A stretch of 64,000 nt of DNA from NCBI GenBank assembly GCA_043228905.1, contig JBHGNT010000007.1, forward strand, positions 16,988,001 through 17,052,000. Reading direction: 5' to 3'. The DNA is from Azolla caroliniana. Its lineage: Eukaryota > Plantae > Polypodiophyta. Both the position numbers and the translations under genes were made by a program. Below, one piece after another: positions 21,453 through 64,000 of the stretch (positions are counted from its first letter, which is position 1; each line of letters opens with the position of its first letter). The notes beneath the pieces were generated by a model. That model was given only the letters and a program-made list of their open reading frames with translations, was not told the DNA's origin and made no database searches.

Positions 21453-21871
21453 CGTTGTTCTCTGACCGGACAAGGCCTAACACAAGGTGTCACGGAGACA
21501 CTTCACCAAAGGGTGATTACGGCATAGGATTATGACTCAACGATTACACCGACCTAAGTAGGTTACACGATTAAAGCGCTTTTGTTAATTACACGCATAA
21601 GATATAACAGTAAGTACAGAACGGAAATCAACACAGAAGTATAAACACCATACGCTCTATTAATTATCCGCCGCTATTACAATGGGCTCCGGGCCTTTAA
21701 ATAGGTTTCCGGTCCGTAGTACAAAACGGTGCCTATCGCACCTATTCGGGATCCGTCCAGATCTGGAACGACATACCGTTTCCAGTCCGTCCGTCCATAC
21801 TATGCTTATTTACAACCATACTTAATTAATTCCTTCACTCCGTATTTTGGACTCCTTGCCGGCCGGTAACA
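21453..21871 (-). repeat. 3' LTR of element A
   Basis: Direct repeat of 38235-38653. Minus-strand TATA CCTATTTAAAGG. Terminal base is C rather than T at 21453. Confidence 0.95.
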
Positions 21872-21873
21872 CA

Positions 21874-21911
21874 TGGCACGCCCGTGGGACAGTACCTTGT
21901 ACGTCGAACCC
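21874..21911 (+). promoter_or_regulatory. Inverted tRNA-Arg(UCU)-like primer-binding site at the position where the PPT is expected
   Basis: TGGCACGCCCGTGGGAC starts 2 nt from the LTR, followed by a 13-nt spacer and TCGAACCC. The arrangement is conserved in element F at 60031-60070. Confidence 0.75.
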
Positions 21912-21923
21912 TTCTCGGCCCCT

Positions 21924-24963: not shown

Positions 24964-26313
24964 TTACACATCCGTAGGTCCCTTCGGACCCTTACCGTTT
25001 TCCTTACGGGTTGCCGTGTCTTCCTTCGCCTCTGCTATGGGTTCCCCGTCGTCTTTTTCTTCCATCCGTACCGTTCCCGGTATAGTGCCGGTGGGCTGCA
25101 TAAACGGGTTACTTGGCATCGGTCCTTTATAGGGCTTTAGTCTAAATCCGTTGACCCACTTGCCTAGCACTTCACCGGCAAGTGTCCCTAACTGATAGGA
25201 CCCGTTGTATTCCCGTGTCAGCCAATACGGGCCTGTCCATCTAAACCGGAGTTTACCCGGCATCTTGCTCATCCTCCTTTGGAATACTAGCACCGGCTTT
25301 CCGATTTCGAACATCTTTTCATTACCTTTCCGGTGACGGTCAACGAACGCTTTCCGTCGTCGTTGCTCCAGTTCCATGTGTAGGATGTTGGCCAGCCGTT
25401 GCTCCTCCAGTTCGCATAGTGCTGCTAGCCGCATTTCCTCCGACTCCTTTTCATTCAGCCGTTCCCGTAGTTGGATCCGTAAGCTTGGTACCTGAAATTC
25501 CACCGGCATGACCGCCTCTAAGCCGAACGCTAACCGGAACGGCGTTGTCCGGATACTTGTTTTGTATGCCGTTCGGTACGCCCATAGCGCGCTATGGAGC
25601 TTTGTATCCCAGTCCGTCCGGTTTTCATTGACGATTTTGCGGAGAATGTTCTGGAGCGTTTTGTTGGTTGACTCTGCTAACCCGTTTGCTTGTGGGTAGT
25701 ACGGTGTGCTCCGTTTATGGACCACGGCATAGAACGTTGTTAAGCTTTCAACTACCTGGCCGAGGAAGTGCCCTCCTTGGTCGCTGATTAATTCAATCGG
25801 ACATCCATATCGGCACCAAATGTTCTCGTACAAGAATTTTGCTGTGGATGACGCGGTGTTGTCTCTCAAGGCCTTAGCCTCCACCCATTTAGTGCAATAA
25901 TCTGTTGCCACGATGACATAACGATTACCCGTTCTCATTGTCGGTGGCTTGAATGGTCCGACAAAATCCAACCCCCACTTCTGGAATGGCTCTAGTGGAA
26001 GTACCGGTTGGTGTGGCATCCGTGCTTGCTCCGTAGGCTGGCCCATTCGTTGGCATAGGTCACATTCCTTAGCATACTTGACGGCGTCTTTTAACGTCGT
26101 GGGCCACCATAAGCCGCTCTGCCATACTTTCCTTGCCGTCGCTTCCCCGACATAGTGTCCTCCGGCAACCCCACAATGAGCTTCCCGTAAGATTACTTGT
26201 TTCTCGTCACTACGGACTGCCCGTCTCCATATTCCATCTGCTCCCTTGTGGTAGAGAGTGTCCCGTAACAGACAGAAATTGCGGCTCTGCACCGCCAGTC
26301 GTTTCCTCTCGTC
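24964..26313 (-). pseudogene. Integrase part of element A pol
   Basis: HHCC motif (EAHCGVAGGH...CDLCQ), core WGLDFVGP / SDQGGHF / QANGLAE and GPY motif. In frame with 33661+ once element B and one CCGG are removed (EMNR|DERKRL). Confidence 0.95.
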
Positions 26314-26317
26314 CCGG

Positions 26318-27129
26318 TGTCGTGAAGAAAACCGTCCATAAGCGGAATCGGCAGACCAAGGCGTGGGAACCGGTTCCTCACGCGCGCACGCTCCAAGTCG
26401 AACATAGAAGCGAGTTAGGAGGATATTCGGCAGGAACGGGCCCTAACACGAGTGGAGACAAAGACCGCGCGAACAGTCTTTTCGGTCGCGCGCGCGAGCT
26501 AAGGGACGGCACGAGTCGGCGGCGTAACTACGCGTATGCGTGAAGAACGGAGCGGATCCCTGTTCGAAAGGGACAGGGGATAAAGCTGACATGACGGCCT
26601 GCTCGTCGATATATATAAGGAACAGGAAAGAGCTGTAAGAGATATATCGCGCGGAGAGGACGAAGTGCTGCCGGACCGTTTCTGGACGCTTCTCTCTCTC
26701 TGTTTCCTTCCTTCTTGAGCTCCATAGCTTTCTGTGCAGGGTTCCGAGGAGGCTCGCGCTGTTTCGAGGAACGCCCGAGTGCTTCCGGCAGCACCTCCAA
26801 CCTGCTACCCCCCCCCCCCTTGCCCTGTTTTGTGCCTCGAAGCGGGCAGGCATCGGCATCTGTTCGCCGGCCTGTTCGGTTGTAACCAACCTGTGCCCCA
26901 TCGAGGGTTGTAGTAGTGTTAGCCATTTTTTTTTAATATACATATTAAGTCATTCGCATCTGTCTGTGTCGGTGTCTGTTCGCGTTCTCCGTGCTGAAGG
27001 GCCGTGTCCCTGTGTATCCCCGGTCCTGCGTAGCCGGTTCTCTCTCTTTCTCCTCCCTCGCTTGCTCTTTGGTTCGAGGCCCTCGCGGTCCCGCCTCGTT
27101 TCCACACGCACTTGCTTAATACCTCGACA
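26318..27129 (+). repeat. 5' LTR of element B
   Basis: 812-bp direct repeat with a TATATAA box near 26611. Confidence 0.97.
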
Positions 27130-27133
27130 TCTT

Positions 27134-27151: not shown

Positions 27152-27173
27152 AGAGGCGGCAGAAGAGCAGAAG

Positions 27174-29300
27174 ATGAGGGGGTCGGATCTTGCAGAAGCC
27201 ATGGCTTCGGCCGTGGATCGGATTGTAAACGCGCGCGAGGGCACCGGTGCCCTCGACAGAGCTATTGAGGCGGTCGTCGGCACGATCGGCCGGTTCGATG
27301 GGAGGGATGCCACGAAGTATCTGGCGTCCTACGGTGCAGAAATGTTGATGCGGGACATTCCGGAAGAAAGGCGTCTTGCCGGATTTCCCCGAGTGGCAAT
27401 GCCGAGCATCCATGCGGAGGTGCTCGAGGTGCGGGCGGAGAGCCGTACCTGGGAGGAGTTCGAAGGCCGGCTCCTAGAGAAATACGGGCTGGACGACGCG
27501 CTCCGGCTTTCGAAGCGAAGGTTCATGGAATGGGTGGAGTCCCCGGGGAAGGGAAGAAACGCGTCGGCACTCCTCCGGGAGTTCGAGGAAAACTTTGCGC
27601 GCCTTTCGGCGCTCGACCGAACCATCCTGGACACGAGCCGGGTCTTGCTGTTTGTCAAGTCGGTCGACGAGCGGGATCGGGAGCAAGTGGGCCTCTTGCT
27701 GGAAACCGAAGACGGGCTCACTACCGACTGGGCGGCTGTCAAGAAGGTCTGTGGCCGTTTCGACAAACGGCGAGAATGGGCGGATAACGGGGTAACCGGG
27801 TCGGGCTCGGTCGCAGCAAGGAAGTTCGAACCAGCGCCACAGGTGCGGGAGGAAGAGACCCGAGAGTGGTTGGAAACCGGTTCGGCTTCGACCGGCGTAG
27901 TCAGAGGCTCAACCGGAGGAGCGGCGCTGGAGGAATTGACGAGGGCGGTAAAGGACCTCCAAATCGCGCAAGCCCGAAGGGAAGGTGGCGAACCGGCTCG
28001 TGACCGACGGCCGGTGGCAGGAAACAGGTGCATGTGGTGCGATGAAGTCGGCCACATTCGGAAGGACTGCGGCGACTTCGCGGAGGCGCTAAGGGACAGG
28101 GTGGTGTACCTGTGGGAAGGGCGGGTGCATGCCAGCGACACCCGAAGGGCCCTGAGCCGAAACGACGGGCGAGGTGGTATGAAAAGGTTGATGGAAGAGG
28201 CAACGGCCCGACACGCGGAAACCGTCCACTACTCGGCGTCGGCCGGCATTCGAGTCGGGGGCGGCGAGGCCCAAAAGGAAAGCAAAGCCGGATTCTGGCC
28301 GACGATGCTGGGAGGCCTTGCCGGTGCAAGGCTTAAAGGGGAGGAATCGGACCGCGCGGAGAAACGAGTACGGGAGATAACCGGGTGGAGCGACCCGGTC
28401 GAGGAAAGGACGGGCTTCGTGGAAGCCGCTTGCCAGAACTACGAGGCTCTGGTAGAAGAGAAGCGGGTGGGGAAACCCGGGACGACCGGGCCCTCACAAC
28501 GATACGAGACCCGGTCCGGGCCACGACGGGACGAAGCCGGCGGGGCCGGTACGAAAGATAAACCCCAGAAGGGCGGGTACCGTCTGGGGACGGAGATAGA
28601 AAGGACCACGGACTTACGAAAGGTCCTGGAGGAACGGATCCTCGACAGCAAGGTGGAGCTGTCGTTACGAGAGGTGCTGGGAATCGCCAAGAAGGAGTTC
28701 CACGACTCCATCGTGGACTTGGTGAAACGGAAGAGGCTGTCAACGGAGACAGAACCGGAAAGACCAATGGAAGTGCGGACGACGCACCTAGACGACATGG
28801 CGCTGGGAGACGAGTGGGCGGAAAGCCACTATTCGAGACCACACTGGGCCCGAGCGACCACGGAAACCCCGGTGAAGATCGGCGATGTCCAGGAACCGGT
28901 GATAGCTTTGGTGGACCACGGATCGGAGATCAACTTGATGTCCATGGACTTCTATAAGAAGGGCAAATGGCCGATCAACACCAAGCACGGGTGGAAAATA
29001 AGGGCGGCAACGCGCGCCACCGAGGAGCTGCACGGGGCTTGTCCGAATGTGCGAGTCAAGATCGGCGACGTCGAGATTGACCAGCACTTCTTCGTGCAGG
29101 AGACATCTTCGCATCCGGTCATACTGGGAGAGCCGTACATCACGGCGGCGCGGATGGAGACCAAGGTGCTGGACAACGGTTCGGCCTACGCGAGGGTCAA
29201 AAGCCAAGACGGGCGCCATTCGGTCCAGTTTCTGACGGTACGGCCGAACCACGAACGTAACCGCGACTCCCTCGGTTCCGAAACCCGAGAGGATTTTTAG
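27174..29300 (+). CDS. gag: Gag-protease ORF of element B
   Basis: Open frame with zinc knuckle CMWCDEVGHIRKDC and aspartic protease ALVDHGSEINLM...VILGEPY. First ATG is at 27174. Confidence 0.92.
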   Translation: MRGSDLAEAMASAVDRIVNAREGTGALDRAIEAVVGTIGRFDGRDATKYLASYGAEMLMRDIPEERRLAGFPRVAMPSIHAEVLEVRAESRTWEEFEGRLLEKYGLDDALRLSKRRFMEWVESPGKGRNASALLREFEENFARLSALDRTILDTSRVLLFVKSVDERDREQVGLLLETEDGLTTDWAAVKKVCGRFDKRREWADNGVTGSGSVAARKFEPAPQVREEETREWLETGSASTGVVRGSTGGAALEELTRAVKDLQIAQARREGGEPARDRRPVAGNRCMWCDEVGHIRKDCGDFAEALRDRVVYLWEGRVHASDTRRALSRNDGRGGMKRLMEEATARHAETVHYSASAGIRVGGGEAQKESKAGFWPTMLGGLAGARLKGEESDRAEKRVREITGWSDPVEERTGFVEAACQNYEALVEEKRVGKPGTTGPSQRYETRSGPRRDEAGGAGTKDKPQKGGYRLGTEIERTTDLRKVLEERILDSKVELSLREVLGIAKKEFHDSIVDLVKRKRLSTETEPERPMEVRTTHLDDMALGDEWAESHYSRPHWARATTETPVKIGDVQEPVIALVDHGSEINLMSMDFYKKGKWPINTKHGWKIRAATRATEELHGACPNVRVKIGDVEIDQHFFVQETSSHPVILGEPYITAARMETKVLDNGSAYARVKSQDGRHSVQFLTVRPNHERNRDSLGSETREDF

Positions 29301-29356
29301 AGAGGACTGCCAAGGCGTGGGGCCGCGACAGTCCGGATGCTCCGGGAAAACCCCAC
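29291..29356 (+). promoter_or_regulatory. Predicted -1 ribosomal frameshift signal (G GAT TTT plus H-type pseudoknot)
   Basis: Slippery heptamer 29291-29297, 6-nt spacer, stem GGACTG/CAGTCC, and loop GTGGGG pairing with CCCCAC at 29351-29356. The pol frame is -1 and open across the site. Confidence 0.8.
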
Positions 29357-32300
29357 ATCTGTACGATAAAACCGTGTACAATAGGTAGGAAATTTTGCTT
29401 CTCCGACAGCGGAGCATGTACGTTGGTCGGCATCGCCGGCCGAGAGAAAACAAAGACGGAGGGGAGACTTCGGGCGTGCGGAGTTCTCGGCCCTGACGAA
29501 GAAATCAACGGAGCCGTGGAGGCAGTCTCCTTCGACGACACCTTGGGGATGCTGGGGAGGGTAGTCGAAGAAGACCTTATCGAGGACCGGGCGATACCGG
29601 TATGTTCAGAAGAAATGTACGAAGTCATCGCGGACTTCGGTCGAGGGCTCGAGTCGGAACGGACGGCCCGAGTTAGCACCAAGTACAAGACTGTGGACCG
29701 GAAGGTGAGGCCAGTTGCGGCGCCCCTACCGGAGGGCAGCGAATCCCGAATCAAAGGGGTTGCATCGGACCCCAGCTTACGGGATCCGGCCTCCATAGGA
29801 CACACCTTCACCAACGAGACGCTCCGCGAGCTGAAGATCGGTGGGGGCGGGTTCCTACTGCCGGCGGAGGAAGACCGGTTCCGGAGAATGCTCGGAAGGC
29901 ACGGGAAAGCCTTCGCATTCTCACCGGAGGAAATCGGGTGCGTAGACCCGACGATCGTAGAACCGATGGTGATATTCACGGTACCGCATGTACCGTGGAA
30001 TCTCAAGCCAATTCCGGTTCCGAGAGCTCACATCTCGAAGTTGATGGAGCTGTTGAAGCAGAAAGTTGATATGGGCATTCTCGAGCCGTCGAGCGCCCCG
30101 TACTCGAACCGATGGTTTACCGTACCAAAGAAAAACGGATCATTGCGCTTCATTCAGGACCTGCAGCCGGTCAACAGAGTGACCATTCGGAACGCAGGGA
30201 TCGGACCGACCATAGACGAGTTCGCGGAGGCCTTCGCCGGAAGGTCGATTTACTCGGTCGGTGATCTATATTCAGGGTACGACCAGTTCCAGCTAGCCGT
30301 GGAGAGCAGAGACATTACGACGATGCGAACTCCCCTCGGCCTAGTGCGGATGTGTACGCTGCCGCAAGGAGGGACCAACTCGGTGGCGCACATGGTGAGT
30401 GCAATGAACAAGGTGCTGAGGGACTGCATCCCGGACATCACCATGCCGTTTCTAGACGACATCCCGATCAAGGGATGCCTGGTAGAAGAGAAGGACGAGA
30501 CGGTCGGGCCGGACGGATGCCGGCGGTTCGTGATGGCGCACATCGACGACTGCGAGAAGGTGCTGCAAAGGCTAGAGGATGCGAGGCTCACCTTCTCGGG
30601 GGAGAAATCAGCCTTCGGGCAGTCGGAAATCATGGTGGTCGGACACTTATGTGGGCCATATGGCCGGAAACCGTCTCCGGCAAAGGTAGAAGCCATCTCC
30701 GCGATGAAGCCCGACTGCAGCTCGGTTACGGAAGTACGAAGATTCCTGGGGGCATGCGCATTCTACCACATATGGATCCCGCATTACGCGCACGTCGCGG
30801 AGCCGCTGTACGGATTATTGAAGAAAGGGCGAAGATTCGAATGGCTAGACAAGCACACGGAGTCGGTCCGGAAGCTGAAGGAGGCTCTTTCGGCAGCACC
30901 GGCGCTCCGAAAGGCCGTCTACAGGAAGGGCACCCCAGTGTACATAACGGTTGACACGAGTCCGACCGGAATCGGGTGGGTCGTCAACCAAGAAGACGAG
31001 GACGGCAATCGGTTTCCGATCCGATTCGGCGCGAAGGTCCTCAGCGAACGGCAGCGAGGATACGCCCAGGTTAAACGCGAACTCTGGGGTATCGTTTCGG
31101 CGGTGAAGGCCAACAAGGACTATCTGATCGGGACGGAGGTAATCATAGAGACGGATTGCATGCCGATTCTCGGCATGATTTCCGGATGCGCGACGCCGGA
31201 CCTGGCAATGCTCAGGTGGATAGCGTACATCAAGTCCCTGGACCCGGAAATACGACACATTTCCGGGAAAGACAACGCCATGGCCGACATGCTTTCAAGG
31301 GCGAGATTCGATGACGAGGGCGGCATGGTTTCGGAGGACGAAGACGTCGGCGTGGACTTCTTCGAGACTGCGTATGTAACAACCGACGGAACAAGCACTC
31401 CGGCGCTTAACGACTTCGACGCGAGCAAGTACGACGGGGAGTGGCTGCAGATCGGTGGGTTTTTGAAGACAATGACGCCCGATGCGTCATGGACGAAGGA
31501 CGAGGCCATCCGGATCCGGAAGAAAGCGTACCGGTTCTTTCTCCGGGATGGCTATCTATGGAAGCACCCGAAGAAGAAGGACGGCGCTCCGCTCCGGGTG
31601 GTGGCGATGAAGGAAGAACAGGAGGAGCTGCTGACGGCCTACCACGACAGCCCTTGGGCTGGACACCGTGGAACATGGGCTACGTTTGAGAAACTGAAGG
31701 GGAAGTATTGGTGGCCGGGGCAGTACCGGGACGTGCATCGGTTCGTGACAACTTGCGAGAGCTGTCAGATGCACTCCATAGTACGACATCGGGACGAGCT
31801 TCACCCCACGTACCCTCCGACCATCCACTTCAAATGGATGGTAGATCTGGTGACGATGCCAATGGGGGTAGGACAGATGCGGTACCTGGTCCTAGCGCGG
31901 GAGGATCTGACGAACCAGGTGGAAGGCCGGGCCCTTCCGAACAAAACGACCGCGGCCGTATGCCGGTTCCTAATCGAGGACGTGATATGCCGGTACGGGT
32001 GCGTCGGGAAGATCGTGGCTGACCGAGGGGAGTTGGACGCCGAAGAAGCCGCGGAGCTGTTCGGCCGGCTGGGAGTCAAGCTCTCGCTCACCACTGCGTA
32101 CAATCCGGAGGCGAATGGAAAGGTGGAGCGCGGACACGGACCGATCGTCAAGGCGTTGGTTCGGGCATGCGGAGGCCGAGTCGGTGACTGGCCGCGGCTG
32201 CTACCTTATGCTTTGTGGGCAGACCGGACCACGCACAGTTCGGTAACCGGGTACATGCCGACGGAGCTCATGTTCGGCCAGAAGCCGATCATGCCGATGG

Positions 32301-32779
32301 AACGGACGATCTCCTCGTGGGCAACGGTCGACTGGAGGGACGAGATGAGCCGGGAGGAGTTGTTGGCCGCGCGCATACGACAGCTCGAGCGGAGACCGGA
32401 GGACGTGGAACTGGCTGCGGAGAAGCTCCGGGTGGCGAGGAAAAAGAACAAAGCCAGGTTCGACCGAACGCACCGGCTCCGACCGAAGAAAATCGAAGAA
32501 GGTGACTGGGTGCTCGTCTACGACAGCAGCCTCGACAACCAGCACCGAGCTACACGGAAGTTCGCACGAAGGTGGTTCGGGCCTTACGTGGTACGGAGCG
32601 CCAATGACAACGGGACATATCACCTGGCGGAACTCGACGGCACGAGAATGGCGATACCGGTTGCAGGGAAGCGGATCAAGGCGTTCAAGAAGCGACACGA
32701 CGACGAGCCAGACCCGGCTCTCCTGGTCAGCAGTGACGAACGATCCGAAAACGAGGAAGAACCGACGGGCGAGGAATGA
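29297..32779 (+). CDS. pol: Pol (RT-RNase H-integrase) of element B, -1 frame
   Basis: RT motifs DLYSGYDQF, LPQGGTNS, PFLDD; RH motifs ITVDTS, KRELWG; INT motifs YHDSPWAGH..CESCQ, ADRGE, NGKVER; GPY; no chromodomain. Confidence 0.95.
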   Translation, partial: LERTAKAWGRDSPDAPGKPHICTIKPCTIGRKFCFSDSGACTLVGIAGREKTKTEGRLRACGVLGPDEEINGAVEAVSFDDTLGMLGRVVEEDLIEDRAIPVCSEEMYEVIADFGRGLESERTARVSTKYKTVDRKVRPVAAPLPEGSESRIKGVASDPSLRDPASIGHTFTNETLRELKIGGGGFLLPAEEDRFRRMLGRHGKAFAFSPEEIGCVDPTIVEPMVIFTVPHVPWNLKPIPVPRAHISKLMELLKQKVDMGILEPSSAPYSNRWFTVPKKNGSLRFIQDLQPVNRVTIRNAGIGPTIDEFAEAFAGRSIYSVGDLYSGYDQFQLAVESRDITTMRTPLGLVRMCTLPQGGTNSVAHMVSAMNKVLRDCIPDITMPFLDDIPIKGCLVEEKDETVGPDGCRRFVMAHIDDCEKVLQRLEDARLTFSGEKSAFGQSEIMVVGHLCGPYGRKPSPAKVEAISAMKPDCSSVTEVRRFLGACAFYHIWIPHYAHVAEPLYGLLKKGRRFEWLDKHTESVRKLKEALSAAPALRKAVYRKGTPVYITVDTSPTGIGWVVNQEDEDGNRFPIRFGAKVLSERQRGYAQVKRELWGIVSAVKANKDYLIGTEVIIETDCMPILGMISGCATPDLAMLRWIAYIKSLDPEIRHISGKDNAMADMLSRARFDDEGGMVSEDEDVGVDFFETAYVTTDGTSTPALNDFDASKYDGEWLQIGGFLKTMTPDASWTKDEAIRIRKKAYRFFLRDGYLWKHPKKKDGAPLRVVAMKEEQEELLTAYHDSPWAGHRGTWATFEKLKGKYWWPGQYRDVHRFVTTCESCQMHSIVRHRDELHPTYPPTIHFKWMVDLVTMPMGVGQMRYLVLAREDLTNQVEGRALPNKTTAAVCRFLIEDVICRYGCVGKIVADRGELDAEEAAELFGRLGVKLSLTTAYNPEANGKVERGHGPIVKALVRACGGRVGDWPRLLPYALWADRTTHSSVTGYMPTELMFGQKPIMPMERTISSWATVDWRDEMSREELLAARIRQLERRPEDVELAAEKLRVARKKNKARFDRTHRLRPKKIEEGDWVLVYDSSLDNQHRATRKFARRWFGPYVVRSANDNGTYHLAELDGTRMAIPVAGKRIKAFKKRHDDEPDPALLVSSDERSENEEEPTGEE

Positions 32780-32850
32780 AGACGGGCCGGTTTTCTCCGT
32801 CCCAACTTTCTTGGCGCATACCGGAGGATGCGCGGTTAGGTGGGGGCGGA

Positions 32851-33660
32851 TGTCGTGAAGAAAACCGTCCATAAGCGGAATCGGCAGACCAAGGCGTGGG
32901 AACCGGTTCCTCACGCGCGCACGCTCCAAGTCGAACATAGAAGCGAGTTAGGAGGATATTCGGCAGGAACGGGCCCTAACACGAGTGGAGACAAAGACCG
33001 CGCGAACAGTCTTTTCGGTCGCGCGCGCGAGCTAAGGGACGGCACGAGTCGGCGGCGTAACTACGCGTATGCGTGAAGAACGGAGCGGATCCCTGTTCGA
33101 AAGGGACAGGGGATAAAGCTGACATGACGGCCTGCTCGTCGATATATATAAGGAACAGGAAAGAGCTGTAAGAGATATATCGCGCGGAGAGGACGAAGTG
33201 CTGCCGGACCGTTTCTGGACGCTTCTCTCTCTCTGTTTCCTTCCTTCTTGAGCTCCATAGCTTTCTGTGCAGGGTTCCGAGGAGGCTCGCGCTGTTTCGA
33301 GGAACGCCCGAGTGCTTCCGGCAGCACCTCCAACCTGCTACCCCCCCCCCTTGCCCTGTTTTGTGCCTCGAAGCGGGCAGGCATCGGCATCTGTTCGCCG
33401 GCCTGTTCGGTTGTAACCAACCTGTGCCCCATCGAGGGTTGTAGTAGTGTTAGCCATTTTTTTTTAATATACATATTAAGTCATTCGCATCTGTCTGTGT
33501 CGGTGTCTGTTCGCGTTCTCCGTGCTGAAGGGCCGTGTCCCTGTGTATCCCCGGTCCTGCGTAGCCGGTTCTCTCTCTTTCTCCTCCCTCGCTTGCTCTT
33601 TGGTTCGAGGCCCCCGCGGTCCCGCCTCGTTTCCACACGCACTTGCTTAATACCTCGACA
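32851..33660 (+). repeat. 3' LTR of element B, preceded by PPT AGGTGGGGGCGGA
   Basis: 810-bp direct repeat of 26318-27129. Confidence 0.97.
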
Positions 33661-36600
33661 CCGGTTCATTTCCTTCGGTGGCAGACCCGTGCTTAGGAAT
33701 TGGTGCATGTTTGTCAGCCACCTATCTTCTGATACCACCATGTCGTCCGCTGCCGTTTCCGGGGCCATACGGAATAACTCTGCGTCCGGGAATTCATCCG
33801 CTACTCCGTCGCCTGATTCTCCGGACTCTAACCGGCTCAGATAGTCTGCTACGACATGCTGGATACCGGGCCGGTGGAAGATCTCGAATTCGAACTCCTG
33901 CAACAACAAGGTCCAACGGGCCAACTTACCGGTCAGGGACGCCTTGGACACTAAGTACAGGAGCGCCGAGTGATCCACATGAAAGGAGAACTTCCTTCCC
34001 AATAGGTAATGACGAAACTTTGTGACACTGTAGATCATGCCCAGGGCCTCCCGTTCCGTAGTCGAATAGTTCTTCTCCGCTTGGGACAGCTTCCGGCTGG
34101 CGTAGTATACCGGCCGGTACCATTTAGGCTCCGTAAGTTGCATTAAGGCGCTGCCGATAGCGATGTCGGAAGCGTCAACGAACACATGAAATTCCTTGCT
34201 CCAATCCGGAGGCTGCACGACGGGTGCTTGCGACAAAAGTACCTTCAGGGCATTGTATGCCTTATCCTCCGTATCCGTCCATTGGAACGGTGTCCGATGT
34301 ACTGCGGTGTGTAATGGTGTAGCCAAGTCAGCCAAGTGACGGAGCATCCGGCTGTGCCACCGGATCTGTCCTAAGAATCGGCTTAGTGCTTTGGCCGTTT
34401 TCGGCGCCGGTGCCCCTAGTATCGCGTTTACTTTGTCCGGGTCGACCGCAATGCCCTCCTTACTTACAATGTGTCCCAGTAAGATTCCACTTGACACCCC
34501 AAAGACGCATTTTTCTGGGTTTAAGCTTAGCCGGTATAACCTACACTTTTCAAGGCATAACCGTAGGTGCTGCAAATGGTCTTTTTCCTGGCTATAGACT
34601 GCAAAGTCATCCAGGAAAACCTGCATGAAGGCTGGAATGTATTCGCCGAAGATCTCCATGATGATTCGCTGGAAAGTTGCTGGTGCCGTTTTTAGTCCGA
34701 ACATCATTACTACGGCCACAAACACCCCCCATTCGGTGACGAACGTTGTCTTCTCCTGGTCGTCAGGGTGCATCCGGATTTGATTGTATCCGCTGAACCC
34801 GTCTAAAAAGCTATAAACTTCATGGCCGGCGACGGCATCCAGTACTCCATCCGTGAACGGAAGAGGGAATGCATCCGTAATTGTGGTTGCATTTAGTTTC
34901 CTGTAATCTACACACACGCGGATTTTACCGTTCTTCTTTGGGACGACGACGATGGGGCTCAGCCACGTTGCTTTCTTTACCGGCCGGATGAAGCCCACTC
35001 TTAGGAGTTTGTCGATTTCCTCCTTCACTTTGGCGGCGTAGTTGGGGTTCATTCGGTAACGTCTTTGCGCCACTGGTTTCGCGTCCTTGCCTAAGTGGAT
35101 CTGATGCTGATATAATTGAGGGTCCAGCCCTTGCATGTCTTCGTATGACCAGGCGAATACGTCGCGAAACTCCGTGAGAAGTTTGATTATCGCCGCTTTA
35201 TCTTCCAGTTTCATTTCTTTGGCGATGTGTACCGGCTTTGATTCGTCCTTGCTTCCTAGGTTCACTTCGTCGAGCTGGGATGTTTTTACCCGTTGGGAAA
35301 TGGCCATTTCCCGTTCCAACGCTTCCTGTGCTTGCCGTAATTCCCGAATCGAATCTTTGTCTGGTTCGGCTTCGGTTTCGTCCCGCTGCGGCAAGTATGG
35401 CGCTACGGCTTCAGCTACGTCAATCTCGAAGAGTGGTACGATCTTTGGGTGTTCCTCCAAGTACTGGGCTTCTTCGTCGTCTGCCAACCCTTCAAGCATG
35501 TTCACGCATTCCGCATACAACGGTGTGCATTCCTTACCGTTGCTCGTCCGTGGTTGTGTCGGTACCCGGACCTTGGCTTTTCCGCGCCGGAAGGTAATCA
35601 TATTTTTCCGCCAATTTTGCTTGATGTGTGTTGTTTTCAACCATGGTCTGCCCAGCAACAGTGGGTACGCGCCTTGCGCCTGTAGCTGCAGCACTACAGC
35701 CGAGATGTGAAATGTGTGACCTCCTATGGTGACCTCCAATTTCCGTATTAAGCCCATCGGCCGTACAGAGCTCGTATCCGCCATCCGTAGCCAGAACGGA
35801 CATGGCTCCCATTCATGTATACCCAAGGCATCACACGTGTGGAGGCTTATTACGTTCACCCCGGAACCTCCATCGATTACTGTGCCGGGAAGTTCGTGCC
35901 CTTTGACAATAGCTGTAATCACCGGACTACTAGTGTCCACCACCGTCGGTCCCTCCTCCGGATTCGAGAAGAGGACTGGTGCCGGTGGGGCTATACCGTC
36001 TGTCATGATCGTTTTTAGTCCTTCCGTAAATCGCGGCACGAGCTGCAAGAGTCTTCCTAATGGCAACGTGATCTGACATTCTTGCAGTGCTTGCCATGTC
36101 TCGTTTTCTGCGTGGCTACCGCCGGCACTCCCTATGGTATTCGCCTTTTGTCGTTCCGCGTCCGCGACGTTCCTTTCATTGGCTTCCTTCACCCATTCCG
36201 TCGCCTGTTTTCGTATGGCCTCTTGTGTTTCCCACTCTTTGGCCATGCCTTTCGACCGTGTGGTTACTTGCTGTACATCCGCCACTTCCGGAACCACCAT
36301 ATTAACTGCTGGTCGTTTATCGTAGCTCTTTGCCGGGCACTGGTTACTGTAGTGGCCTTCCTGCCTGCAGTAGTAGCAGTACTCTTTACGGGTATTGCTG
36401 GATTCAACATTGCTGGTAGCCGGAGTCGGTCCCATAGTGAGTGGTGCGTTCTGTGCCGGTTGGCTCCTTGGGGTTCCATGTTCCGGGTCCCTAGGGTGAC
36501 CACCTTTCTTGAAATTACGTTTCTTATTATTCTTATTTTTATTTCGGTAGTCCTGTCGTGGTGGATCATAAAATCGGCCGTAGTCCTCCTGGTGCCTTCG

Positions 36601-38181
36601 GTAACCAGGGGAATGGTCTCTGTCGTATTGCTCGTGTCGTCTGTTGGACTCCCGATAACGGTCCGATCGCTCATACCGGTCGTAGTTATCATGCCGATCC
36701 CCGTACCGGCCATCATTCTCTTGTCTGTCTCCGTACCGGACATCCTGTGCCGGTCGGTACCGGTTCATTCTTTGCCAACGATCTTCATCTTCGTCCCGGC
36801 TGCTTCTTGGCTCGATCCGTCGGACGGGTGGTGCTTGTCGGTTTAGCAGGTTATACTCACACCGGTCCGTTGTATGACTCTTGGATTGACAAATCACACA
36901 CTGGGTTCGCATGGTGCACTCCACTGCCGAGTGTCCGGCATTCAAGCAGATTGTGCATTGAATTGCCTGCCGGAACCGGAGATCTTCATCTGTGGGTAAT
37001 GCCCGTTGCAGTGCTCCCAGTGTAAGCCATGAGCTTGACTTTTCCATTTCTCTGACCCGGTCAATGACTTGGTCAATGGTGCTTCCTCGAAAGTCGATCA
37101 CCGTACACACCGTGCGTAACGGTTCCCGGAGTGTGCTTAAAAATATCGTCCGTAATTCCTCCTCCGGGGGTGCACGGGCAAGCTAGCTATGCATTCGTTG
37201 GAAACGGATGACGAATTGGGGAATGCTTTCCCCTGCCTCCTGTTGGATCGTATAAAACAGGCCCACCATTGTCGTCTGGTCGACCTCCTTGTGGAAAAAA
37301 TGCAAGAATTTTGCTTTTAATTCTGCAAAGGTTGTGATGGTCACCGGGTCCTGCGTCCGCCGCCATCGTGCCGCTGGTCCTTCCAACGTGACCCCGAATT
37401 CCGCTATCTTCGAGCGTTCTTCTTCCTCCGCTGTCAATCGCTGGGACGCGTGATTTGCTTCCCATGTCTGCTCGAAGGCATGAACATGCGCTTCCGCGTC
37501 CGGATCATCGCGATACTTTGAGTATTGGAACGGCATGTCGTCGTCCAGTATTAGGCCGTGGTTTAGTGGCGTTTGTTGATCTCTTTCCGGTTTTCTCTCC
37601 GGTTCCACTTCCAGTTCTTTTGCCGGTGCTTTTTCCGGTTCCTCTTCCGGTTCTTTTTCCGGTTCCTTCACCGGCGCTTCTTCCGGTACCTTCGCCGGCT
37701 CTTTCGTTGGGGTCGGTGGCTTTGCTTCTTCCACTTCCGGTGTTGGTGGGTTGACGGCTTCCGTTTGCGGTTTCGGATAGCCCTGGTCGAACGGTTCCGG
37801 TTCCGGAGTCGGCACGGTATCCGACTCGTCGTCCTCCGGGCCGCCGGGGGTATCGTTGTTGCTCCGGTAGTTCGTGTGCACGCTGTATCCCCCTTCGGAA
37901 TCCGATTCGTAGGCTGAAAAGGCTTCTGCCTCGTTTTCTCCGCTTGCCAGCGCCTCGAGGAGGCGTTCGGTTTCCCGGAGACTACTTAGACCGCTTCCGT
38001 TGTCCTGGTCGCGAGTTTGCTGTAACCGAAGAGATTCCTCCGCGACTCTCCGGATCTCGTTGGAGAACGAACGATCCGAGCGAATTTCGTGCGCTGCTTG
38101 CTGGAAAGTCTCACGCCGTCTTTGCCGTTCGGCGAGGCGTCAAGCTCGGTCTGTAACCAGGTCGTGCGTTGGTCTCGTCAT
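33661..38181 (-). pseudogene. Gag-PR-RT-RNase H part of the single gag-pol ORF of element A
   Basis: One frame from ATG 38181 with premature TGA (38140) and TAG (37183). Three CCHC knuckles, PR VIDGGSG, RT FLDGFSGYNQI / FLDD, RH FHVFVDAS. Confidence 0.93.
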
Positions 38182-38217
38182 CCATTAAGCCGTCGTTCGC
38201 TGCGAGAAAGCAGGAAT

Positions 38218-38228
38218 CGTGGTCGCCA
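38218..38228 (-). promoter_or_regulatory. PBS of element A (tRNA-Arg(UCG)-like)
   Basis: TGGCGACCACG begins 6 nt after the 5' LTR; 10-11 nt match to the recalled tRNA-Arg(UCG) 3' end. Confidence 0.7.
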
Positions 38229-38234: not shown

Positions 38235-38653
38235 TGTTGTTCTCTGACCGGACAAGGCCTAACACAAGGTGTCACGGAGACACTTCACCAAAGGGTGATT
38301 ACGGCATAGGATTATGACTCAACGATTACACCGACCTAAGTAGGTTACACGATTAAAGCGCTTTTGTTAATTACACGCGTAAGATATAACAGTAAGTACA
38401 GAACGGAAATCAACACAGAAGTATAAACACCATACGCTCTATTAATTATCCGCCGCTATTACAATGGGCTCCGGGCCTTTAAATAGGTTTCCGGTCCGTA
38501 GTACAAAACGGTGCCTATCGCACCTATTCGGGATCTGTCCGGATCTGGAACGGCATACCGTTTCCAGTCCGTCCGTCCATACTATGCTTATTTACAACCA
38601 TACTTAATTAATTCCTTCACTCCGTATTTTGGACTCCTTGCCGGCCGGTAACA
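38235..38653 (-). repeat. 5' LTR of element A
   Basis: 419 bp, TGTT...AACA termini. Confidence 0.95.
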
Positions 38654-38895
38654 ACCACTATATTGAACATTACATTTTCTAATGCATCTTTTTACATAGT
38701 GTCTTCCATGTGATCGTAGGCTAGAGTTATCACATCCCTTTTCATATCCTGAGTTATTCATGTCTATCGGAGTCATCCCTTCTTCTTCTTTTTTCATAGC
38801 AGTGGTCTCCTCTTTTGCTCGCTTTTGATAATACTTCTTTCTTCTCGCAAGAGAAACAAGTCAAAAAAGAAGGGAGCCCGATGTTTAGAAGGACG

Positions 38896-51850: not shown

Positions 51851-52634
51851 CTTTTGGAATGTAGGGGGTTAAACCCATGACCTCCTGGTCTTATTGAGCA
51901 ACCTTACCAATTGAGCTACATCTATCTATACATTATTGTATTGTATAAGTTTCAACTTATTACATTCTATGTTAATCACTAGAACTTTCAAGAAACTTCT
52001 AGAGAATGCATCTTCATGCACTCTCTAGAAGTTTCCATGCACTCTCTAGATGTTTCCTAGCTTGCATGCATACCACCGCATTCTTGTATAAATACTTCGG
52101 TGCACCTTGATTACAATCAAGGTGAACAACACACAACCCCAGTGTTGGTCCACCTCGACCCCACAAGGCCCTTCCAAGTTGAAACCGATGCCACCGACTT
52201 TGCCATTGGAGCTGTCTTGTCCCAACCAGATGACGAGGGCACACTACATCCTGTTGCCTTACTCTCGGAAGTTTACCACCCTAGAAATCAATTATCTGGT
52301 CTACGACAAGGAGCATGCAACAATCATATCTGCTTTCACCGAGTGATGACCCTATTTGGCTGGGGCCCAACATCGCATCCAGGTGCTGACCGACCACAAA
52401 AATCTAATTTACTTCACCACCAGTCGTACATTGAATCGGAGGCAAGCTCGATGGTCATCTTTTCTCTCCGACTACGATGTCTGCTCGAAATCATTAGTGA
52501 CCAAGGCTCGCATTTCCTCAACGAAGTGATAGCACATTTACTAGGTGACTTTGAGATCTTGTTTCGACTTGGAGTTCAACATGGGAAAGCTGATGCCCTC
52601 TCTCAGCGTCCTGATTTTGCATTGGAGATGACGC

Positions 52635-56155: not shown

Positions 56156-57964
56156 ACGCATATTCACAACAATCCCATTGTTTGTTGCGACCCGATCAAC
56201 TTCAGATTTTCGCCACCTGCATGTTGCATGATGATTCTTTGCTCAACGAGATTGCCACAACAACCATGTCAGACCCATTCGCCAAAGAAATCATGGCCTG
56301 CATCAATGACCCATCTCTGGGCATGAAAAGCTCATATCTCAACCAATTTACAACCCAGGATGGGTTACTATATCATAATCATCTCTTGTACGTTCCCGAA
56401 GGATCATGTTGGACATGGGTACTACAAAACTGTCATGATGATCCTCTTGCCGGCCACTCTAGGGTCACAAATACCCTGGAATTGCTATCTCGAGGGTTTT
56501 GGTGGCCCCAACCTTGGAAATTTGTCAAGGAATTTGTCAAGACATGTGATGTATGTGCTCGGTCCAAAATGCCTGACCACCGGCCATATGGTCTTCTCCA
56601 CCCGCTTCCCATTCCAAGTCGACCATGGGTCTCTCTATCCATGGACTTTATCACTGACCTCCCTCTGGTTGGTGGCCATGACACGGTGTTAGTCATTGTC
56701 GATCGGTTTTCGAAGATGGCTCACTTTGTCCCATGTTCCAAAACCATTTTCGGGGAAGAGACAACTGACCTTTTTCTTAAAAATGTTGTCTAATTACATG
56801 GCTTACCAGAGGATATCACCTCTGATCGAGGTTCTCAGTTCATTTCCCACTTTTGGCGACGACTTCTACAAACATTCGAGACTTTTGTAAACTTGTCCTC
56901 AACATACCATCCTCAAACTGATGGACAAACAGAACGAGTCAACCAAATCCTCGAACAATACCTTCGGTGTACCGTGAGCTACCAACAAGAGGATTGGGTG
57001 GGTTTCCTTGCAATGACGGAATTTGCCTACAATAATAGTATCCATGCTTCGACTAAGGTTTCCCCCTTCTTTGCAAACTATGGATTTCACCCTCATTTAA
57101 GCATTTCCATACCTGCAACTTCGGTCAATCCATCGGTAGAGACACGTGCCCATGCTTTACACGATGTCCATCGTGATCTCTCCTTGGAGCTCCGTGCTGC
57201 TAGCGACTAGTATAAAGATTAAGCAGACCGACATTTCTTGGCTACACCAACGTTTGCAGTCGGGGACATGGTTTGGCTGTTACGTCGCCACATCGCCACC
57301 ACACGTCCTTGTGCAAAATTGGACTATAAAAGACTAGGCCCTTTTTGTATCATCGAGCGGATCAACCTAGTCGCCTTCCGGTTAGCACTTCCTCCACTCT
57401 CGATATCATCAACTCCTCAACTCTCGATATCATCGTCGACAACTTCAATATTTGGTCTTATGAAAAGGTTACCCCATTTTAGACGCCACATGGGAACCAA
57501 TTACACATTTACAAAATGCTCCGAAGGCCATTCGTGATTTTCATCAACGATACCCACATAAGCCAGTCGCGAGTTCTGGGAGGTGGCCTTAGAGGGAGGA
57601 TAATGTCATGGACACGATGGAATGTAGGGGGTTGCACCCATGACGTCCTGATCTTATTGGGAAACCTTACTAATTGAGCTACATCCATCTATGCATTATT
57701 GTATTGTATAAGTTTCAACTTATTACATTCTATGTTAATCACTAGAACTTTCAAGAAATTTCTAGAGAATGCATCTTCATGCACTCTCTAGAAGTTTCCA
57801 TGCACTCTCTAGATGTTTCCTAGCTTGCATGCATACCACCACATTCTTGTATAAATACTTCGGTGCACCTTGATTACAATCAAGGTGAACAACACCAATT
57901 ACGGAAGCATAATTTAGTTCTTGCTCTTTTGTCTACCTTCTCTCTCTCTTGTTCTCTTGTCTAT

Positions 57965-58472: not shown

Positions 58473-60079
58473 ATAATTTTGACATATCCTTGGGCGCTGT
58501 CCAAGAGGATGAGACGCCAACGTGACGGGTTCAACTGTCATCACTTGAAACTTTTATGGTAGGACGTTTCTTCGCGCTCGGAGGTTGGACATTGTTTGGT
58601 GGACGAGATGTCGATTTCGGCCGACGTGGCGGGTTCAACTTCCGTCCCTTGAAACGTTTATGGTAGGACATTTCTTTCTGCTCAGAGGTTGGAATTAGAA
58701 TCGGAAAAATCCATCGCAATGCTCGTAACTTAGCCTTTGTATTGACTTCATGAGTTTTCGGATGTGATGGGTTGATGATTCATTATACGCCGATTTCGCC
58801 AAAATTCATGTAATTTTGTGTCCCAAGCTTAGAATTTTGGGCCGAAAATTCCACACGATTCACGTGGTGAAGCCTTTATATTAGATCCTGAAACAAGGAT
58901 TTGTAGAAACAATAAAAAGAAGATATAATATAATAAAATTTTGTTAGCAATAGTAAGTTTATGAGGGTGTGTGATCACAATGAGAATATTCTCGACGCCA
59001 TTACATGGAGTGAACAAGAGACAAAAGAAGGACAAGAACATAGGAGTATATGTAGAGGGTAAAATCACAAGTAGAGCTCCAGGGGAGATCCTTGAGTTTT
59101 GGAGCAACATCCCAACGAATGATGACCATGTCGCCTTTTCTCGATGTTGGTCTTGCATGTCATGGACATAGGCCACGGAAGATGGCAAGGATTGAACCCA
59201 AGACCTCATGGTCTCAATTGGGAAACCCTACCAATTGAGCTACATATACATCCTCATATTAAATCCAACTTCATATGTATTATCCCTTAGGCTGGACAAG
59301 CCCTAACACAGGGTGTCCCTATGGAACACTTCACCAAAGGGTGGTACGGGGAGATATGGATAAATTGTGGTATCAAATGGCTCTTAACTGATTACTAACC
59401 GGCACTGTTAATGATTGTAATACACACATAAGAGTAATTATATTAAGCACAAGATGGTAAACAAATAGATACTAAATACTACGTAAAATAACAACACTTC
59501 TATTAATGATCCGTCGTTGATTACATTCTTGCCGGGTCCTTTTATAGGTCTCCGACTGAGTTACAACCGGCAACGATCCGGTCCGGATCCGAATTGGCAA
59601 ACCGATTCTGGGTCCGTCCGTCCGGTTTCAAAATCACATAATAACATAATTAAACCCTAAACCCTAAACCCAAAACCCAAAACCCAATGCTTAATATAAT
59701 TACTCTTACATGCGTAAGAGTAATTATATTAAGCACAGGATGGTAAACAAATAGATACTAAATACTACGTAAAATAACAACACTTCTATTAATGATCCGT
59801 CGTTGATTACATTCTTGCTGGGTCCTTTTATAGGTCTCCGACTGAGTTACAACCGGCAACAATCCGGTCCGGATCCGAATTGGCATACTGATTTTGCGTC
59901 TGTCCGTCTGCTTTCAAAATCACATAATAACATAATTAAATCCTTATTAATGTCAACTCCCTATTCCTAATTAAACATCCCTTTCACATTCTGGACTCTA
60001 ACTGGCCCTTTGTCCTTGCCGGCCAACACATGGCATACCTGTGGGACAGTACATTGTACATCGAACCCACGGTTAGCCC

Positions 60080-63000
60080 TTTATCAATCGTCTGTTAAAA
60101 TGTCCAGAATGCTTTGGTCCAAGGGTTCTAGAGGTTCTTCGGGTAGTTGCTCCGTTTGTTGTGGTGGTTGTTGTTGCTGTTGCTCTTCAGCCTACTCTTC
60201 CTTTCTGGCTTCAGTCCCTTCTTGCTCCAGTCCCTCCGGGCTTCCGTCTCCGGCTCATATGTTCTGGGCTCCTCCCGCTCCTGACGCCTGGCTTGCACTA
60301 GCTCTTTCGGGTCCGCTATCTTCAGTTGCTCTTCTTGGGCTACTTTTGGCTGGCTTCCTTTGGTTTCAACTACATTCGACGCCTGCTCCGGAGATTTCTC
60401 TTTGTCACTAATGTTAATTGCCGCTGTTCTTGTAGTCTCCATTTGCTGTCTCCGCTCCCGTTTGTATCGCTCGAACTGGAGTTGGGTATCCAGTTGGTCG
60501 TCATCCAGCTATTCCACTAGCCGGCCCACCGCCACCAGTTGCTCTCCGGCCAAGGACAAGAAGTCATCCAATAACTCCTCCTGTATGGTCACAACGCTTT
60601 CCGCGTCCAGTTTGTAGAAGTTATCATCGTCCTTTTGCTGGTTCTCCACATCCGCTCGCCGGACCTGCAACTCGGCTGCTTGCTTTGCCCATTTGGACCA
60701 CCAGTGTACTGAACTGTCTTCCACTAACTTCTTCATCCGGTCCCTCCATGTCACTACAATATCTCGAATACGATTAAGTCCCATCTTTGACTTCTCCTCT
60801 GCGGCCTGCTTTTCTTCCTTTAATTGCTTTATGAGGATCGCGGTTGCCTCAGCTTGTCCCTGATACTGCATCAGTTGCGTCTGATAAGTCGTCTAAACTC
60901 TGTTTAGAGCCATCTTTGCTTGTTCCATCTCCTCATGATGTTGCCGGGTAAGCTCCATTTTGTCCTTCACCGCTTCTGCGAGCATCTTTGCCACTTCGAC
61001 TCCCTTGGTCCTTTCTTCCACCAATGCCGTTGCCGTCCTGTTGACTTCATCCCGGTTCCCGCATCTTTTCTGGCTGCTGGTCACCTTTTGTCATCAATTT
61101 CTTGTGTTCTGCCTCTAGGTGCTTGTGATTCTGGTGCAACCTATCAAAATCCTCCATTTTCTGTTTCAACCTCTGATTGATTTGGCATCGGATTCGGTCC
61201 TCATGGTCCTTCTGTTGCCGGAGTTCTTCTTGTAGTCGCTCAATCTCGACTTCCACTGATCGCTGGAGTTTGTCCTTTTCTTGCAACAACTTGGCTTTTT
61301 CTTCCTTCAATCGGTCATATGCTTGATGACCTTTCCGTAGATTGTCCTCGGTTTTTCAGAGGTTTTCTGCCGTTTTCCGTTGTTCTTCCTCCGCCGCCTT
61401 CTTCAGGTCTCGTTCTCTAGCCCTTAAGGCCTCTTGGGCTGCCAATTCTTCTCTAAGAGTGGCTAGTTCTTGTTCTTGTGCCTTATTTGTATCTAGTGCT
61501 ATTTCCGTTACCGGCGTCTTATTGGTTTGTTCATTCTCCGGGGCCAAAGGTTTCTTGACCGAGCTTTCTCAAGTTCTTTGGTTGTGGCGAACAACTGGTT
61601 CCCTTGTGCTCTCTCCTCCATTTCTAATTGGCACACGACCCCGACCACCTGCTCGCCTATTCACTGTAGCCACTGACTGCCGGTGCCTTTTAGTCGTGCC
61701 GGTGTCGCATTGTTACGAGCGTGCGTGTAGAAGGGGCGGGACCACGGGGGTCTCGGACTAGGGAGTAGAGGAGAAGGAATAAGATAGGATATGGAGGCTT
61801 AGCTCAAGAGGAGAAGAAGAAGAATAAGATCATGACATAGAAGGAGAGATCGGCCAAGGCAAGATACTCAACAAGATATATTAAAACAAACGAATGATTA
61901 CAACAATGGTGGCCGCGTGGGCCGCACCAAATGACTATGAGAAAACCCTAACCGAGGGTGAATAAGGAAACCCTAAACGAAACCCTAACCCTAAACAGTA
62001 AGAACTCTAGACTAAGTGGTATACCTTTCATACGCAAAATAGGCAACCCCTTCATAAGTGACCCCTCCCTTCCTTTTATAGCCCAAGGAGGGAGGGACCT
62101 TACAACGTGGGATGAAATTTCCCCTCTTATTTCTATACACCATTTCCTAGTAATCGTGTGCACATGTTGCACACCACCGATTTGCCCTTTCCACCCCGGT
62201 TTTCGCCTATGGACGAAAATCTTCACGACACCGGTTTTGGTTGTGGCATGACCTCTATTCTCGCCGGAAGCCCTTTTTGGATTGCTGACTGTAGCGGTAA
62301 CTCTTGCTCTTGCTGTGCCTACTGCCCTAGTGAGGTAGGCAATTCGATTACCGGTTCTTGGACCATCAACACTGTTGCTTCTTGCCGCACAGGTAACTCT
62401 TTCCTCGGTTCTGGTTGAGCCGATTCCGCCTCCTTTTTTGGCTCTAGTCCCTCGGAACGGGGTGTCAGTGTGCTGTCCTTCACCGGACCCAATTCGTCCC
62501 CCTTCTGATCTGCGTTGCTACGCTTCTGGCGACGTAGGAGATTATCGATGGGGTCTTCCTCCGCCTCCTCCTCTTGGGTTCTGATATTGATCTTCATTGC
62601 CAAGGGGTCCGACTCTTGTTCCATTTGGCACAACTTGATTTTAAGAGGCTTTACTGGTGGCTCTACTAGTGTCTCTGTCTTCTGCTTGCCTCTTCCGCTA
62701 GGTGGTTCTTTCCCTTGCTGCGAGGTACTGCCCTCTTTCCATCCAGGCGTGTGCTTGGCCAAGAGTTGTTGCCGTTTTGAAGGTTTGTTGGGCATGGTCT
62801 CCATTACTTGAACCCGCTTCTTAGTCCTTACCGGCTCCACTGGTGGCGCCAAAAGAGTCAGCCATTGAGCCACGACCGTTCATAATTTCTTGCCGTTTTG
62901 CACGGATTCTATCGTTGTCCGCAAGCAACCGGCGATGATTACTGACCAATCCACTTGCACCCTTGTGTATGTAGCAATGATGACACCAACTTTGTTCTTT

Positions 63001-63353
63001 GGCATTGCTGGGGGTCGGGGGTACACAAACCCATACTCGTGGAGGACACGAGCCACTTCTCTGAACAGGGGGTCCTCGCCGCCCTGTGTTTGGTGAGCCT
63101 TACTAGTGAGGGAATACTCGCCAAAAAACTTGGTTAGCGTTTCAGGAGAAGGGTTCTCGATGGAGTAGATGCCCCCTTCCGGCAGTCCGATTAGAGCGCG
63201 GATGGCTTCCTCTGTTATGACTTCCGTGTCGATTTTTTGCAAGACTTCTTCTGCTTTGTCGTGCGGCGGCGCCTCTGCTATTCTCAGGAAGCCTCCCAAC
63301 CCATGTTGGTTGAACCATTTCTTGGCTGTTTCGGAAAGTGCCATCGGTTCCAT
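60080..63353 (-). pseudogene. Extra 3' ORF of element F, broken by frameshifts, stops and a solo LTR
   Basis: Collinear homology with 21924-24593 (DTEVITEEAIRAL.GLPEGGI, LHEYG.VYPRPP.MPKN, ELAAQEALRARERDLK, WWSKWA). Confidence 0.85.
61703..62230 (-). mobile_element. Solo LTR of the tRNA-Trp lineage
   Basis: TGTCG...CGACA termini, 4-bp TSD CCGG. Minus-strand start TGTCGTGAAGATTTTCGTCCATAGGCG resembles the element B LTR start, and the other end resembles the element E LTR. Confidence 0.9.
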
Positions 63354-64000
63354 CTCGTCGTCTGGTTCTGCGAGGGTGGGTAGGGCCGATGTGCTTCTTG
63401 CATCCGTTTGTTCACTTGTATTGTCCTTTGTGCGCTCAGTGCTCGGTGTTTGCGAAATGAAAGAGACTCTGCGAGGCGGAGGTTTTGTGTTCCCATGCTT
63501 GGTGCCTTTCTCGATTCCCGTGCATGCACGTTGTGTACTATAATAACAATTGTGTGACACGTGGTGCGCTTTAACTAGGCTTTAAATAGCCACTACACAC
63601 CTTTTCGAGGTGTCCTTCGTTCCTCGCCTCTGCACGATGATCTCTCTCTCTCCTTTTTTTTAGTTCCGGTTACCTGGTAACCCCAGCTCCCTTGTCTGTT
63701 TTTCTTCATGGTTGCCGGCCAACTGTTTGCCGCTGCCTATTTCCGCATTGTTCTCCGGTTGATGAAACGGGTTCTATGGCATGGGTCCATAATATGGTTT
63801 AAGTCGGAACCCATTTACCCACTTGTCCAGCACCTCGCCGGCTTGCATTCCCAGCTGATATGAGCCGTTGAACTCTCTCGTTATCCAATATGGTCCGGTC
63901 CATCAGAACTATAGCTTCCCTGACATTTTGTTCATTCGGGTCTGGAACACTAGTACTGGCTTGCTGATTCCAAACATCTTCTCGTTACCCTTCCGGTGGT

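Follow-up and report, generated by a model that had tools for sequence, protein, structure and literature searches.

A family of Ty3/Gypsy-type LTR retrotransposons represented in Azolla caroliniana carries, beside the 3' LTR and at the position of the polypurine tract (PPT), a two-block complement of the 3' end of tRNA-Arg(UCU). This split tRNA site is real, selected and family-wide. The missing PPT and the conserved tRNA complement at its position together suggest that a second host tRNA likely primes the plus strand; on sequence grounds we give a probability of roughly 0.6 to the reading in which tRNA-Arg(UCU) would anneal to minus-strand DNA and prime plus-strand synthesis in trans.

Layout of the split site in elements F and C

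Element F lies at the end of the window (the whole 64-kb stretch of DNA analysed here). Its 3' LTR (59276..60028, minus strand, TG...CA) contains a 286-bp internal tandem duplication, carries two minus-strand TATAAAA motifs, at about 59826 and 59540, and terminates as ..ccaaca at 60028. It is followed by a 2-nt offset, CA (60029..60030), which separates the LTR from the match to the tRNA CCA end and which among relatives is fixed in length and variable in its letters. Block 1, TGGCATACCTGTGGGAC (17 nt, 60031..60047, plus strand), is the complement of positions 76-59 of tRNA-Arg(UCU), as judged from a proxy tRNA that is not the host's, with one base skipped relative to this proxy at the acceptor/T-stem junction; read on minus-strand cDNA, it is a primer-binding site (PBS). 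A 13-nt spacer, agtacattgtaca (60048..60060, plus strand), of the form GTAC-att-GTAC then sits between tRNA positions 59 and 58 and contains a 4-bp hairpin with arms at 60049-52 and 60056-59, and block 2, TCGAACCCAC (10 nt, 60061..60070, plus strand), is the complement of positions 58-49, that is, the T loop and the 5' T stem. As a whole, the site matches the last 28 nt of tRNA-Arg(UCU) in inverted orientation. The two-block pattern has two matches in the window and none in each of 100 shuffles. No tRNA genes were called in the window by ARAGORN, and Rfam gave no match above gathering score at the site.

The other match belongs to element C, where the site (21872..21911, plus strand) has the layout seen in F, with a second block of 8 nt. 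The adjoining 3' LTR (21454..21871, minus strand) carries a TATA-like minus-strand motif, CTATTTAAA, at about 21696, and comparison with the 5' LTR (38235..38654, minus strand) gives 4 differences in 418 nt. Between these direct LTRs, gag, PR, RT, RNase H and INT follow in Ty3/Gypsy order, with two extra ORFs at the 3' side; gag, RT, RNase H and integrase are on the minus strand. The part from gag through a protease-like motif and RT to RNase H (33481..38139, minus strand) has its catalytic motifs present and is separated by the nested element D from the integrase (24964..26442, minus strand; Integrase_H2C2 and rve). An ordinary sense PBS, TGGCGACCAC (38219..38228, minus strand), is separated from the 5' LTR by 6 or 9 nt and directly precedes gag; we take it to be complementary to another tRNA-Arg. 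As to a 4-5-bp target-site duplication, the two flanks of C agree at three of five bases under either boundary, and only one end of F falls in the window.

Of F, a diverged and broken relative of C with protein identities of 48-65%, the window contains the 3' part, and its placement in Ty3/Gypsy follows from the homology of this part to C. A broken extra ORF (60515..61702, minus strand) is homologous to the 3' extra ORF of C at 48-58% identity in pieces, a second extra-ORF remnant (63087..63389, minus strand) is 58% identical to its C counterpart over the matched part, and a C-terminal part of the integrase (63687..63998, minus strand) is 65% identical to that of C, the element continuing past the window end. 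The F copy differs from most matched public-run contigs at four CpG-type places, which marks it as a decayed copy. Between its extra ORFs, F is interrupted by an LTR-like insert (about 61713-62172; TG...CA, TATA on the minus strand), around which no matching target duplication was seen.

F itself is inserted into an LTR of the neighbouring E family. The starts of the E-family LTRs (51855-51930, 57618-57690 and 59180-59250) resemble, by eye, a tRNA head on the minus strand with box A and box B-like motifs; this head was called by neither ARAGORN nor Rfam, and it may be Helenus-like. Element D (26318-33640), nested in C, is a near-intact Gypsy element that has a DUF4100 gag and whose PPT is of the ordinary, G-rich kind.

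No PPT was found before the 3' LTR of C or of F, where purines make up 8 of 15 positions in both; the corresponding counts in D and E are 11/15 and 12/15. The first-pass annotation of this DNA had described F as an LTR followed by CA and two blocks around a spacer, with an unchanged 2-nt offset and 13-nt GTAC-nnn-GTAC spacer, a longer, 10-nt T-arm match, and no PPT. Our coordinates for this arrangement (60029-60070), the layouts of the two elements, the lengths of block 2 and the purine counts all agree with that description.

Conservation, tRNA match and spacer hairpin

Aligned globally, C and F are identical at 39 of 44 columns of the site, at 150 of 335 columns of the LTR part and at 57 of the next 100. 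The site is the best 44-column window in this alignment: the 836 windows of that length that do not overlap it, some of them gap-rich, reach 75% at best with a median of 41%, which contradicts the possibility that the motif is no more conserved than its neighbours.

A pattern scan of metagenome collections, with the offset (0-6 nt), five block-1 bases and the spacer (4-30 nt) left free, returned 120 loci in 60 of 64 collection parts. Sixty-one were kept as the family, all counts referring to members with both blocks, since the scan needed these, and members lacking them or carrying a full 18-nt block lie outside; the 61 all belong to a single record-name series, possibly that of one study. The remaining 59 loci are unrelated, comprising 20 near-identical loci (offset 0, spacer 8), 20 copies of a tRNA-derived repeat (offset 0, spacer 27-29) and 19 others. 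This repeat (L006, L009, L017, L031 and 16 more) is interspersed, has an antisense tRNA-like body and looks like a tRNA-derived SINE. The sole viral match (L001) was rejected as an unrelated phage-like contig, and a single match with offset 2 and a 5-nt spacer (L044:1783-1816) lies outside the main record series.

Among distinct copies of the family, 51 of 52 have a 2-nt offset, though 0-6 was allowed, and six dinucleotides occur there (CC 19, CA 18, CT 9, CG 2, TA 2, TC 1). The spacer, though allowed to range from 4 to 30 nt, is 13 nt long in 33/52 and 14 nt in 16/52 (13-14 nt in 49/52), and the three copies with longer spacers fit the full 44-position model with a decayed second block. Sorted by flank, the 59 loci whose spacers measure 13-14 nt form 28 groups unlike one another. 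At the PPT position, all 51 distinct stretches have 8-11 purines in 20, a range partly set by the search pattern, and most copies have no PPT substitute within 100 nt. ARAGORN called no tRNA genes in the 61 family loci. Some members (L026, L061, L040) are inserted into or next to one another, each with its own decayed site, and in L026 the site directly follows an ORF stop, with no purine tract.

Public-run contigs matched to C without use of the pattern pile up over 21844-21917, running loose at 21911 in 59, 83, 64 and 19 contigs and at 21868 in 30 and 29. The same core pile-up with diverging flanks is observed for F in runs labelled organisms A, B and C, the depth at both cores being a sum over contigs and not a copy number.

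To identify the tRNA, the joined blocks were searched in prokaryotic and viral collections, which gave 3 loci, two of them tRNA-Arg(tct) genes by ARAGORN that end in CCA. Positions left free by the metagenome scan follow this proxy tRNA in 47/50, 49/50, 39/50 and 30/49 copies at positions 52-49, and the match falls to 6/48 at position 46, so that the edge at about position 49 coincides with the edge of the T stem. Departures of block 1 from the proxy are C>T or G>A in 41 of 47 cases. Cofolding with the proxy, computed with RNA-RNA parameters and a bacterial tRNA in place of the host's, gives -25.0 kcal/mol for both blocks of C versus -18.9 for block 1 alone, with a three-way junction; the non-autonomous L042 family reaches -26.2 kcal/mol and F -16.4 kcal/mol, the weaker value of F being explained by its four CpG-type departures from most contigs. 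The hairpin splits the site at the position of m1A58 in the tRNA, a modification that blocks Watson-Crick pairing and ends the 18-nt PBS of retroviruses, as described in PMC13191261.

Covariation of the spacer hairpin was assessed over 28 distinct rows with a 13-nt spacer (set A1, the 14-nt copies left out). Hairpin cells are paired in 87.5% of cases versus 72.1% in shuffled rows and changed on both sides in 20 cases versus 6.7; none of the 500 shuffles attains either figure, and slid controls pair in at most 59.8%. Of the five measures used, two do not exceed their shuffles (301/500 and 500/500) and three are inflated by relatedness. The two-sided changes include transversions. At one pair, 21 rows have U-A and 6 have G-C, a difference that deamination could not have made. 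Changes from G-C to A-T could come from methyl-C deamination, and an A-T version of the pair is seen in L072. Mismatches in the stem (8 A-C versus 4 G-T) do not tell the folding strand apart. Because C and F have the same arms, they display conservation and no covariation; of the covariation that the first-pass annotation had proposed to look for, two-sided changes are found across copies and not between C and F. As DNA, the 61-nt site has no folding advantage over shuffles (z of -1.5, +1.4 and 0.0), and such a stem, weak alone, suits a hairpin stabilised in a junction.

It had also been argued, from a spacing and hairpin kept across subfamilies, that the site reflects selection and not a one-off tRNA capture, and the family data uphold this: offset and spacer are fixed across 28 flank groups, the stem changes on both sides, conservation has its edge at about position 49, and the core is common to contigs whose flanks diverge.

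Orientation of the site and a proposed tRNA priming of the plus strand

A TATA-like motif occurs on the ORF strand of 26/38 distinct LTR stretches, versus 4/38 for the strand of the site. A downstream protein match was obtained in 17 of the 61 family loci, being the 3' extra ORF in antisense in 16 and gag in none. The remaining locus, L107, has a stretch on the site's own strand that is likewise not gag (L107:1-642, lying 120 nt after the site, 77% like the C region between the integrase and the first extra ORF and in opposite orientation to C). With TATA and ORFs on the strand opposite to it, the site belongs to the U3 end, where it takes the place of the PPT. At the other, 5' LTR of C, the PBS precedes gag, and no PPT abuts the LTR on the opposite strand (8/15 purines). 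The alternative named by the first-pass annotation, that the ORFs are simply antisense and a PPT lies at the other LTR, is contradicted for C and the L042 family by the sense PBS found there. A purine-rich stretch opposite the RNA strand is present about 17-21 nt from the 5' LTR (38209-38216 of the window for C, about 2224-2236 in L042) and is too far away for a PPT. No locus with an F-type LTR start joined to a PBS was found.

At each of its two junctions the L042 family carries TGGCACGCCC, a 10-nt tRNA-Arg match that faces outward and is set 2 nt off the LTR, with an ordinary PBS at the other LTR; the tRNA-like 3' end of its RNA is complementary to its own PBS over 10 nt. Its units of about 2.2-2.5 kb form arrays of LTR-internal-LTR-internal structure (L042:1-2624, L019, L015) that are either true tandems or a collapsed assembly, and the array in L019 abuts a copy carrying the extra ORF.

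The replication cycle that we propose would begin at the ordinary PBS, where a first tRNA starts the minus strand. After this strand has been extended beyond U3 and the RNA has been cleared by RNase H, tRNA-Arg(UCU) would pair over about 27 nt, its positions 76-59 and 58-49 binding on either side of the looped-out hairpin and skirting m1A58. A tRNA bound there on minus-strand DNA has its 3' end directed towards U3-R-U5 from a position 2 nt outside the LTR; its CCA end would be extended across these 2 nt into U3-R-U5, after which RNase H would remove the tRNA as it does a PPT primer and integrase would trim the 2 extra bases. Integrase trims two bases from the cDNA end, and a gap of fixed length and free letters is what is expected if the primer sets that end. 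Three points stand against trans priming: a tRNA hybridised to DNA can be attacked by RNase H and would need to survive until extension, the U3-side match is longer than the 10-nt ordinary PBS, and the C-homologous stretch of L107 lies on the site's own strand.

The last two of these points are accommodated by a reversed polarity, in which the replicated RNA is antisense to the ORFs, the site is the first-strand PBS and the short PBS primes the second strand, so that there would still be two tRNA primers. The 27-nt U3-side match, split like the bipartite PBS described for Ty1/Ty3 in PMC5371799, is stronger than the 10-nt site at the other end. This arrangement would need a separate mRNA, and both the distribution of TATA-like motifs (26/38 versus 4/38) and the position of gag directly after the short PBS in C speak against it; we regard it as improbable. 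A primer in cis, also unlikely but less so, would be provided if the tRNA-like stretch of the element RNA itself (T-stem, hairpin and CCA) survived or steered RNase H and so acted as a non-purine PPT. Its position and the fixed 2-nt offset fit, the L042 sense RNA can fold GUGGG/CCCAC around the hairpin, and it would work without a trans partner. Yet it leaves unaccounted for the 27 bases that match a real tRNA and end at the T-stem edge; the T loop is broken by the insert, conservation does not extend to a 5' acceptor strand, the RNA folds no better than shuffles (z of -0.8, -0.2 and -0.7), and when cut it is in a hybrid and not folded.

The site could instead have a role apart from priming (RNA circularisation, packaging, small-RNA decoy or Pol III promoter), with the plus strand starting otherwise. 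The complementarity of the L042 RNA 3' end to its own PBS would suit circularisation or the like, and tRNA-derived promoters occur in the LTRs of Helenus, according to PMC10886601, which also has Helenus retaining its PPT. However, the ends of C have only TGGC in common, the hairpin interrupts box B with nothing conserved upstream of position 49, and the strict 2-nt offset points to end definition, so that this role ranks low, just ahead of the reversed polarity. Far less credible is a neutral relic of a single tRNA capture, which is already contradicted: single copies, F included, do decay by CpG-type changes, but the identity of C and F at the site against the median of other windows, the retention of the site in 28 flank groups with two-sided stem changes, and the lack of a PPT substitute within 100 nt in most copies all oppose it. 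We therefore retain priming in trans by tRNA-Arg(UCU) as the probable reading. In a broader formulation, held with nearly the same confidence, these elements would form a clade of LTR retrotransposons of non-seed plants that lacks a PPT, primes both strands with tRNAs and has a 27-nt hairpin-split site shaped around m1A58.

Relation to known elements and implications

Elements of the C/F type are Ty3/Gypsy by structure, lack the PPT of that group and fit none of the named plant lineages compared here, each taken as described in its source. With canonical Ty3/Gypsy elements and retroviruses (PMC5371799) they share gag-PR-RT-RH-INT, TG...CA LTRs, a 5' PBS and a primer site before U3; unlike in canonical Ty3/Gypsy, this site is not purine-rich, and the copy of the tRNA 3' end in the RNA amounts to a PBS on minus-strand DNA. 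As in the bipartite PBS of Ty1/Ty3 (PMC5371799), two blocks set apart from each other pair with the acceptor stem and T arm of a single tRNA. However, the Ty1/Ty3 blocks lie on genomic RNA, bind tRNAi-Met and prime the minus strand while the PPT is kept, whereas the blocks described here have, as far as their sequence indicates, the opposite polarity (the strand opposite the ORFs and TATA) and apparently replace the PPT.

Among plant non-chromoviruses (PMC6317226, 10.64898/2026.03.20.713144), Athila, Tat, Phygy and Selgy resemble C in the absence of a detected chromodomain, a non-Met PBS and 3' extra ORFs, and Athila also in a PBS several bases off the LTR (3-6 bp in Athila). Brassicaceae Athila differ by a conserved PPT junction and an Asp/Asn PBS, neither of which applies here; Tat elements (TatI-III, Ogre, Retand) by an additional archaeal-type RNase H, the scanned ORFs of C having given RT_RNaseH families only, in one place; and Phygy by a tRNA-Trp PBS, a 4-bp NCGN target-site duplication and the absence of the extra ORFs that C has. 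Neither PBS 10-mer occurs in the text supplements of PMC6317226, the element-level table apart. Among the 120 homologues listed for the C integrase, the nearest are unnamed metagenome proteins and the closest named ones come from a fern and liverworts; in a quick tree of 92 rows, C groups with the unnamed metagenome proteins beside the fern and liverwort proteins and apart from those of Pinus and Arachis. No relatives of this integrase were found among viral contigs.

The TRIM elements Helenus, Ajax and Cassandra (PMC10886601) likewise combine an LTR element with small-RNA-derived sequence. Theirs lies inside the LTR, is likely a Pol III promoter and coexists with PBS and PPT, whereas the site reported here is outside the LTR, includes CCA and is found without a PPT. 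The open-access full-text literature covered yielded neither a tRNA-primed plus strand nor a comparable PPT-less clade, and tRNA priming of the plus strand, as suggested by the arrangement of these sequences, would be a new route.

Annotation tools keyed to PBS and PPT may miss such elements or call them in the wrong orientation. The site itself offers a small, testable substrate for asking how primer choice determines both the cDNA end and the 2 bases lost to integrase. For retroviruses and LTR retrotransposons, reviews (PMC5371799, PMC13191261) treat a plus strand started from a PPT as the rule. If our reading is true, a successful and diversified PPT-less clade would be a natural exception to this rule, its RT would be able to use a tRNA on a DNA template, and RNase H would not need to select the second primer.
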